Positions 56,641 to 58,162 of a stretch of DNA of 64,000 nt are shown here, piece after piece. The notes beneath the pieces are model-generated. The model made no database searches. It was not told the origin of the DNA and saw nothing but the letters and a program-made list of their open reading frames with translations. The stretch lies in NCBI RefSeq assembly GCF_054482595.1, contig NZ_CM137008.1; one strand, given 5' to 3'. Both the position numbers and the translations under genes were made by a program. Every line of letters starts with the position of its first letter. Within the stretch, counting starts at the first letter, position 1.

Positions 56641-57839
56641 AGTTTACCGTGATGATTCCTATTTATCATTTTCTGGTCAGTGCCGCGATTCTGGTATTCA
56701 TGGTGATTTTCTGTCAGACACGCCATCGCGACCACCGTAACTGGCTGGCTCTGCTGCTATTCGTATTATGATCTGTAAACAGCTGGCCATTGCGGATGGT
56801 TAAAGGAACAATTGTGGGGACAACTGACACATTGCGTAAAATGCAGCGTTATGAACAACTGAGTCAGCACGGGGCTGACAGCTGGAAAATCCTGCTGGGA
56901 GCACCGTTATATGACACGATTGTTATTGTCACTAGTGAGAGTGTGCGCAGGAATTATATGACAGCGTATGGCTATCCCGTATCAACCACACCGTGGCTGA
57001 ATATGGCACCCGGTTTATTTATTGACGGTTATAACTCGACAGCCTCCAGTACTGTGCCTTCCCTGAGCCGGACACTGATTTATGACTATGAGCAGCCCCC
57101 TGATTCCGACAACAACGTGGTGGCGCTGGCAGCAAAAGCAGGATACAGCACATAGTGGATATCCAATCAGGGAAAACTGGGGGAGTATGACACACGCATC
57201 TCTGTTATTGCTTCTGATGCGGAGCATACCGCTTTCCTCAAGAAAGGCAGCTTCGCTTCCCGTAAAACAGATGACAAACTGTTGTTACAGGAAACAGAAC
57301 GTGCGCTGGCGGATACATCCTCTCCGAAGATAATTTTCCTGCACATGATGGGTTCTCATCCAAATCCGTGTGACAGCCTTAACTCCTGGCCGAATAATTA
57401 CCTGGAGCAGTATCCCCGAAAAATTGCCTGTTACCTCGCCAGCATCAGTAAACTGGATAACTTTCTTGGCCAGCTTGATGGTATCCTTCGCCGGTACTCA
57501 CGTCATTTCGCCATGCTTTACTTTTCTGGCCTTGGGCTGTCGGTCAGCGACAGTGCTAATCCTGTTCATCATGATGGTCATGTGCAGGGGGGCTACAGCG
57601 TTCCCCTGATTATTACCGCCAGTGACATCACGTCTCATCAGTCCGTCAGCAGGAAAATCAATGCCCGTAATTTCGCAGGCATTTTTCAGTGGCTGACCGG
57701 TATTCGTACCGAAAATATAACGCCATTCAATCCGCTGACAGACGAAGATAATGAACCCGTTATGGTTTTTAACGGAGAGAAAAATGTGCCGGCAGACAGT
57801 CTGAAACCGCAGCCACTTATTCTTCCGGACCACAGGTAA
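56641..57839 (+). pseudogene. sulfatase-domain phosphoethanolamine-transferase-like gene, disrupted
   Basis: Short TM-encoding start (MMIPIYHFLVSAAILVFMVIF) then sulfatase-domain pieces in ORFs 56790..57155 and 57282..57839 (MMGSHPNPCDSL motif) separated by frame breaks; membrane domain far shorter than in intact family members. Confidence 0.55.
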
Positions 57840-58162
57840 TCATATATGGCAAACTGTAATACAGTCTCTTGTACTGAAAAGGATTCTGTATAGAATAGAA
57901 CCTGTATTCATATCAGCACAAGGGACCACCAAATCCCGGCAACATTCCTTACGTCAGTTATCCCGCATCACCCTGTGGGTGCGGGATTTTTTATGATGTT
58001 TCTTTTTATTGAATATATATAAATAACGAATAACTGCGGATTCTGATAATCCACCTGCAGGGAGCAATCCGGTAAACATTTAATACATCAGTTAATATCG
58101 TTTTGCCTTTTTAACAAAGAAAATATTCATGGAGTAAGTTCCCGGGCATTTGCCCGGGATGA

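Follow-up and report, generated by a model that had tools for sequence, protein, structure and literature searches.

In E. coli K-12, OpgE (YbiP) transfers phosphoethanolamine (PEA) to osmoregulated periplasmic glucans and not to lipid A (PMC3818809). EptA, EptB, EptC and MCR-1 belong to the same superfamily as the island-borne YjgX proteins treated here, and share with them one set of catalytic motifs. For the PEA-transferase group, this set was taken as complete when it comprised a Glu (in GES or GET), a Thr nucleophile and an Asp-His pair (in SDHG), the ligand roles being taken from MCR-1, where Asp465 and His466 supply half of the four ligands that bind Zn1 (PMC5216409). According to a published survey, the islands at pheU, pheV and selC all carry YjgX- or YhbX-like putative PEA transferases (PMC6174562). 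A functional study of YjgX was not found in the literature, where the gene is mentioned as a K-12 pseudogene, as an integration site, as a screen control and in an island survey.

In K-12 the gene, yjgX (b4575), lies beside intB at leuX, in the KpLE2 / PR-Y element, and is annotated as a pseudogene. It is convergent with a P4-type integrase gene at the tRNA-proximal end of its island, with an IS2 between the pseudogene and intB, and its own lesions are one deleted base pair and three in-frame stops, at codons 102, 350 and 472. The locus reported here closely resembles it. Over codons 105-499 the two copies are collinear and about 94% identical in DNA; both are truncated at the 5' end and interrupted, both carry the same D397G/H398L replacement, and the integrase/tRNA context is alike, as expected of members of a single family. 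They differ in site, the present island being at pheV, and in the inactivating changes: our copy is interrupted by stops at codons 93, 144 and 272, is free of indels, and joins a dnaB fragment at codon 90.

The DNA analysed is a stretch of 64,000 nucleotides (hereafter the window), the right end of which is the E. coli chromosome around pheV. A tRNA-Phe (GAA) gene at 59626-59701, on the minus strand, can be named pheV from its context (yqgA and speC lie to its right) and is the integration site of the island. To its left, also on the minus strand, an intact P4-type tyrosine integrase of 421 aa is encoded at 58163-59428; this island integrase shares 99% identity with that of strain Santai and 69% with the integrase of AR436, where the island is inserted at leuX. 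The transferase remnant lies just inside the island, at the integrase-proximal end. The integrase gene is 323 bp downstream of it on the opposite strand, the two being convergent. No distal direct repeat of the tRNA-Phe 3' end occurs within the window, and the island must therefore reach past the window unless the repeat has been lost. The exact pheV junction (window 54000-61500) occurs in none of the complete RefSeq E. coli genomes. The best full-length match to this segment is strain 4FM (mink, China), with 98.4% identity over 7.5 kb; in GTEN_97 the island part is 99.8% identical, but there the island occupies pheU.

We hold with high confidence that the segment 56609-57839, on the plus strand, is the non-functional relic of an island-borne PEA-transferase-like gene of the yjgX family, and one that has already been annotated. 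It comprises codons 90-499 and the stop codon of a yjgX-type (OpgE-like) gene. Codon 90 would start at 56607 in this frame, and homology to the intact gene begins at 56609; from there on, the DNA matches 'phosphoethanolamine transferase' genes in thousands of E. coli genomes and is about 93-94% identical to intact genes of this name that encode 499 aa. Two of the open reading frames left in the segment (56790-57155 and 57282-57839) match the Pfam Sulfatase model PF00884, with scores of 43.0 bits (E 4.5e-11) and 51.4 bits (E 1.3e-13) against a gathering cut-off of 25, so that both belong to the sulfatase/alkaline-phosphatase-fold superfamily. As a pseudogene the locus is real but ordinary: in each of the six relatives that were fetched PGAP treats the gene as a pseudogene, and it places the pseudo-CDS of the window at 56619-57839. 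A preliminary description of this DNA had reported a disrupted, sulfatase-domain, PEA-transferase-like gene beside the integrase, and the domain matches, the DNA identity and the 323-bp spacing bear this out well above the level of chance. The interval that it gave, 56641-57995, falls slightly short on the left, since homology starts at 56609.

That description also had the coding pieces split across frames. In fact, the segment 56607-57839, which runs from codon 90 to the stop, is collinear with three intact 499-aa genes and shows not one insertion or deletion against them. The references are those of AR436, at leuX (L003:3732-5231), and of CP61_Sichuan and TB06051, both at pheV (L008:2732-4231 and L009:2732-4231). 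The three remnants, of 40 aa (56649-56771), 121 aa (56790-57155) and 185 aa (57282-57839), all share one frame, and the breaks between them are nonsense substitutions. Alignment, which had been proposed as a means of mapping frameshifts, thus reveals none against the three intact genes, in agreement with PGAP, which qualifies the GTEN_97 copy, a match of 1.9 kb at 100% identity, as 'internal stop; incomplete; missing N-terminus' and not as frameshifted.

The three stops are Q93* (CAG>TAG, 56616-56618), C144* (TGC>TGA, 56769-56771) and W272* (TGG>TAG, 57153-57155), all on the plus strand. The second ends the 40-aa open reading frame that had been taken for a membrane anchor, and the third divides the two Sulfatase-domain pieces. 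Each is a single-base substitution outside any homopolymer run. Q93* is common to GTEN_97, CDE2901, 4FM, Santai and 19SZHZ663Rt; all three stops are found in the first four of these strains and two of the three in 19SZHZ663Rt. These facts leave practically no room for the idea that the gene is in truth intact and that its interruptions are sequencing or assembly errors, such as homopolymer indels. No indel separates the window from the intact genes, identical stops occur in four independent complete assemblies, GTEN_97 matches without a single difference over 1.9 kb, and the junction at which the 5' end is truncated is common to 11 genomes. As none of the lesions is an indel, a check of read coverage for homopolymer errors becomes moot.

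The 5' end of the gene has been replaced. Its promoter, start codon and codons 1-89 are lost, and directly fused to codon 90, in their place, is a dead 5' fragment of a foreign dnaB gene (56441-56608, plus strand; junction at 56608/56609). The fragment consists of the dnaB upstream region and about 44 codons, is 83% identical to E. coli dnaB and maps to the dnaB start in L007; it has lost its start codon and contains stops, and PGAP describes it as 'hypothetical protein, frameshifted, internal stop'. The dnaB'-'yjgX junction recurs in all 11 complete genomes in which the 1.9-kb query is covered in full. It forms the end of a cargo block with the order nhaC, a gene for a malY/patB-family C-S lyase, dnaB' and 'yjgX (window 53600-56608; also L001, L005, L015 and L016). 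The malY/patB-dnaB'-'yjgX junction is found beside pheV (the window and 4FM), beside pheU (GTEN_97 and CDE2901) and beside leuX (19SZHZ663Rt), and the integrases next to the block differ between strains. Strain KA0011 has the same dnaB fragment followed by an IS3-family transposase gene instead of the transferase relic, an arrangement which hints at an IS-mediated rearrangement.

Along with the first 89 codons, the hydrophobic segments at residues 12-33, 38-54 and 57-78 are gone, and the window copy, which begins at codon 90, no longer encodes a multi-helix membrane domain. What is left is the segment at residues 105-127 and a weaker later one; the 'very short membrane anchor' noticed earlier is thus accounted for by the survival of only the last one or two hydrophobic segments. 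The catalytic site is damaged as well. At 57528-57533 (plus strand) the SDHG metal-ligand motif has become SGLG through D397G and H398L, a change that is also present in K-12 yjgX. In alignments, positions 397 and 398 correspond to the 'SDHGES' of MCR-1 and the 'SDHGEE' of E. coli EptC. The Glu (in SES) and the aligned Thr (in ASST) are kept, so that the set of metal and nucleophile residues is incomplete by the Asp-His pair. Since the 5' end has been replaced by a dead dnaB fragment, three in-frame stops interrupt the frame and Asp-His has become Gly-Leu, no working enzyme can be made from the window copy. Even with the three stops reverted, the predicted product would still be without its first 89 residues, a start codon and the Asp-His ligands, which make up half of the metal site. 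The preliminary description, which took the gene for a probably inactive pseudogene within the sulfatase-fold PEA-transferase superfamily, is therefore upheld on this point by the truncation, the three stops and the lost metal ligands.

It could be argued that something of the gene still functions, either because a truncated product (of 185 or 121 aa) is active or because the Gly-Leu allele has become a neofunctionalised, non-catalytic variant under selection. The allele is indeed widespread: an exact 61-bp match around the Gly-Leu change is present in 1055 of 5426 complete E. coli genomes, K-12 and BL21 derivatives included. Moreover, in hundreds of genomes gene callers predict open reading frames of 370-371 aa for related copies (P0008 and P0009), and dN/dS against the intact genes is about 0.26. 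However, the stops differ from strain to strain and are scattered, together with one frameshift, in the manner of neutral decay and not of a conserved short product. The remaining pieces have neither a signal or membrane segment, nor the two zinc ligands, nor a promoter-like site directly upstream, and deletion of yjgX in K-12 turned out to be a false positive, with no phenotype, in a screen with a cationic peptide (defensin) (PMC4808223). Residual function is thus very unlikely, and the locus is best read as a relic. K-12, BL21 and about one in five complete E. coli genomes have the decayed Gly-Leu allele; alongside it, intact alleles of uncharacterised function are in wide circulation.

The intact relatives make it possible to place the family. 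The 499-aa protein scores 126.6 bits with Pfam Sulfatase and is marginal with EptA_B_N (22.7 bits vs 22.3), and the intact relatives have four strong hydrophobic segments. They fall below every curated NCBIfam cut-off for EptA, EptB, CptA and MCR. The scores with the CptA/EptC models PRK10649 / NF012179 are 106.2 bits vs 404, the highest of all, and 81.9 vs 900; those with EptA and lipid A transferase models range from 39.8 to 72.1 bits, with cut-offs of 500-660, and those with MCR models from 19 to 31 bits, with cut-offs of 1075-1250. Among the K-12 paralogs, OpgE is the closest by a wide margin, with 30% identity over 513 residues (E 9e-74). YhbX is 33% identical in the catalytic domain only, EptB 23%, EptC 22% and EptA 22%; the last, aligned over the catalytic domain only, is the most distant of all. 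The alignment with EptB is likewise confined to the catalytic domain. The best match among solved structures is the catalytic domain of E. coli EptC (PDB 5zzu, E 1.2e-17). Like OpgE, the intact YjgX-family protein has a short membrane domain and conserves the GES, T, H and SDHG motifs. In contrast, opgE is a core chromosomal gene and not island-borne, and K-12 has its own opgE elsewhere in the chromosome; thus OpgE, at 30% identity, is a paralog and not an ortholog of the YjgX family. With 22-23% identity to the Ept proteins and scores far below the NCBIfam cut-offs, the YjgX family is not assignable, on sequence grounds, to the EptA, EptB, EptC or MCR groups.

This placement bears on a suggestion of some practical weight. 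The preliminary description cited the established role of such enzymes in modifying lipid A or core sugars, with a possible effect on polymyxin resistance; this is true of the superfamily but finds no support for the subfamily, whose closest paralog is OpgE and whose members miss the NCBIfam cut-offs. In its strongest form, the suggestion would make the locus a silent resistance determinant, that is, an EptA/MCR-like transferase of PEA to lipid A, open to reactivation by reversion or recombination. The common superfamily (Pfam Sulfatase and the weak EptA_B_N match in intact relatives), the name 'lipid A phosphoethanolamine transferase' that some distant relatives bear in databases, and the occurrence of recombination with intact alleles at this locus could be cited in its favour. 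Yet even the intact relatives reach no more than 20-72 bits with EptA and MCR models, far from the cut-offs of 500-1250 bits; of the K-12 paralogs, OpgE is the closest and EptA the most distant; and before the gene could be reactivated it would have to acquire a 5' end and promoter, revert all three stops and regain Asp-His. We regard this possibility as extremely remote. The window pseudogene has no bearing on polymyxin resistance in the strain, and the locus ought to be listed among pseudogenes and left out of any count of colistin/polymyxin resistance determinants. More generally, the automated names 'phosphoethanolamine transferase' and 'lipid A phosphoethanolamine transferase' overstate what is known of the YjgX family, for which OpgE is the nearest characterised protein.

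Intact 499-aa genes are common, a single cluster at 90% identity having 8941 member sequences; examples are WP_106087037.1 (AR436, at leuX) and WP_016231426.1 (CP61_Sichuan, at pheV). They align with the window remnant without gaps and have the same terminator, integrase neighbour and tRNA context, but keep SDHG and all of the membrane helices, and have diverged from the window copy by about 6-7% in codons 95-398. Among intact alleles dN/dS is about 0.15, and 0.25-0.28 between the window copy and intact genes, at a dS of about 0.22. Judged by these ratios, the intact relatives are under purifying selection. In the lineage of the window copy the value, about 0.26, is well below 1, which means that most of the divergence arose while the gene was under selection; either the inactivation is fairly recent or the signal has been blurred by recombination between alleles. 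The pattern fits a diverged allele that would have been functional for most of its history and would then have decayed. It follows that the intact genes found elsewhere are not 'frame-restored versions' of the window allele. The earlier expectation that such a version might exist in related strains cannot be maintained, as there is no frame to restore and the intact genes represent a different allele, about 6% diverged.

The intact genes are preceded, on the same strand, by a gene for a 246-aa outer-membrane beta-barrel protein (Pfam OMP_b-brl, E 5e-24; L003:2818-3558, L008:1832-2572 and L009:1810-2550), which is absent from the window. In K-12, ompX adjoins the paralog opgE; the parallel with the omp and yjgX pair may be a coincidence.

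An intrinsic terminator follows the remnant at 57960-57992 on the plus strand. It is made of a 10-bp stem, with 6 G-C pairs, and an 8-nt loop (ATCCCGCATC-N8-GGTGCGGGAT), followed by TTTTTT, and is the best terminator-like site in the region. Its predicted fold has an energy of -22.3 kcal/mol, compared with a mean of -10.8 for shuffled sequences (z = -4.5), and none of 200 shuffles was as stable. The terminator-like hairpin with a T-run that had been pointed out at about 57961-57992 is thus confirmed by its fold energy and z-score, as well as by its conservation: the same terminator, identical in sequence, lies downstream of the intact AR436 gene. This also identifies 57960-57992 as the native terminator of the former transferase gene.

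The terminator lies within a patch of about 0.7 kb (~57533-58291 as maximal bounds) that is 100% identical to the copy in the leuX island of AR436. It takes in the terminator together with the 3' ends of both the pseudogene and the integrase gene. Both of its flanks are identical to the Santai-type island and differ from AR436 by 5-15% (counted as mismatches per 100 bp). The locus is thus a small, clear case of gene conversion between paralogous genomic-island ends. The conversion explains why the window is free of E472*, a stop present in Santai, 4FM and CDE2901. Lesions are mosaic among strains in general, scattered stops and one frameshift being distributed over codons 93, 102, 144, 272, 350, 360 and 472. 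Homologous recombination between paralogous island ends appears to act often on the integrase-proximal block, presumably as a passive effect of sequence identity.

One may go further and propose, tentatively, a reading in two parts. The first is that the block formed by the yjgX gene or relic, the terminator and the 3' end of int serves as a shared homology 'handle' through which cargo is exchanged or patched among the pheV, pheU and leuX islands; the leuX-identical 0.7-kb patch in a pheV island, the occurrence of the same junction at three tRNA genes and the mosaic lesions all fit it. The second is that the omp and yjgX pair of the intact islands constitutes an uncharacterised island-borne envelope-modification module, whose enzyme would be OpgE-like rather than directed at lipid A. 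We consider that the two parts, taken jointly, are possible and somewhat improbable.

The history of the locus can be pictured as follows. The ancestral gene would have encoded an island-borne membrane enzyme of about 499 aa, belonging to the PEA-transferase / alkaline-phosphatase superfamily, with four or five membrane helices at its N-terminus, then a sulfatase-fold domain in the periplasm that held a Glu/Thr/Asp/His metal site. By homology, this enzyme would have moved phosphoethanolamine from phosphatidylethanolamine onto an envelope glycan, as OpgE does to periplasmic glucans. Its gene would have been transcribed convergently with the P4-type integrase gene, ending at the hairpin at 57960-57992. 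The present copy would persist only through its place in the conserved integrase-proximal end of tRNA-associated islands, where passive homologous recombination between paralogous island ends probably gave rise to the 0.7-kb patch and to the mosaic lesions.

A few additional features of the region can be mentioned. In an Rfam scan of 55800-60000, the tRNA-Phe was alone above threshold, and no known sRNA was detected in the spacer between the pseudogene and the integrase gene. A match to the Fluoride riboswitch at 56624-56668, inside the pseudogene, stayed below threshold (18.1 bits, E 0.13, with the gathering score at 34) and is regarded as due to chance. Farther to the left, at about 53395-53528 of the window (coordinates transferred from GTEN_97), lies a remnant of psiE, which encodes a phosphate-starvation-inducible protein; in near-identical islands PGAP calls it a frameshifted pseudogene. 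Finally, a perfect palindrome, TCCCGGGCATTTGCCCGGGA, is found at 58138-58158, immediately past the stop codon of the integrase gene. No T-run accompanies it on either strand; it is conserved in AR436, and with one mismatch in Santai, and may serve int as an element for transcription or for mRNA stability.
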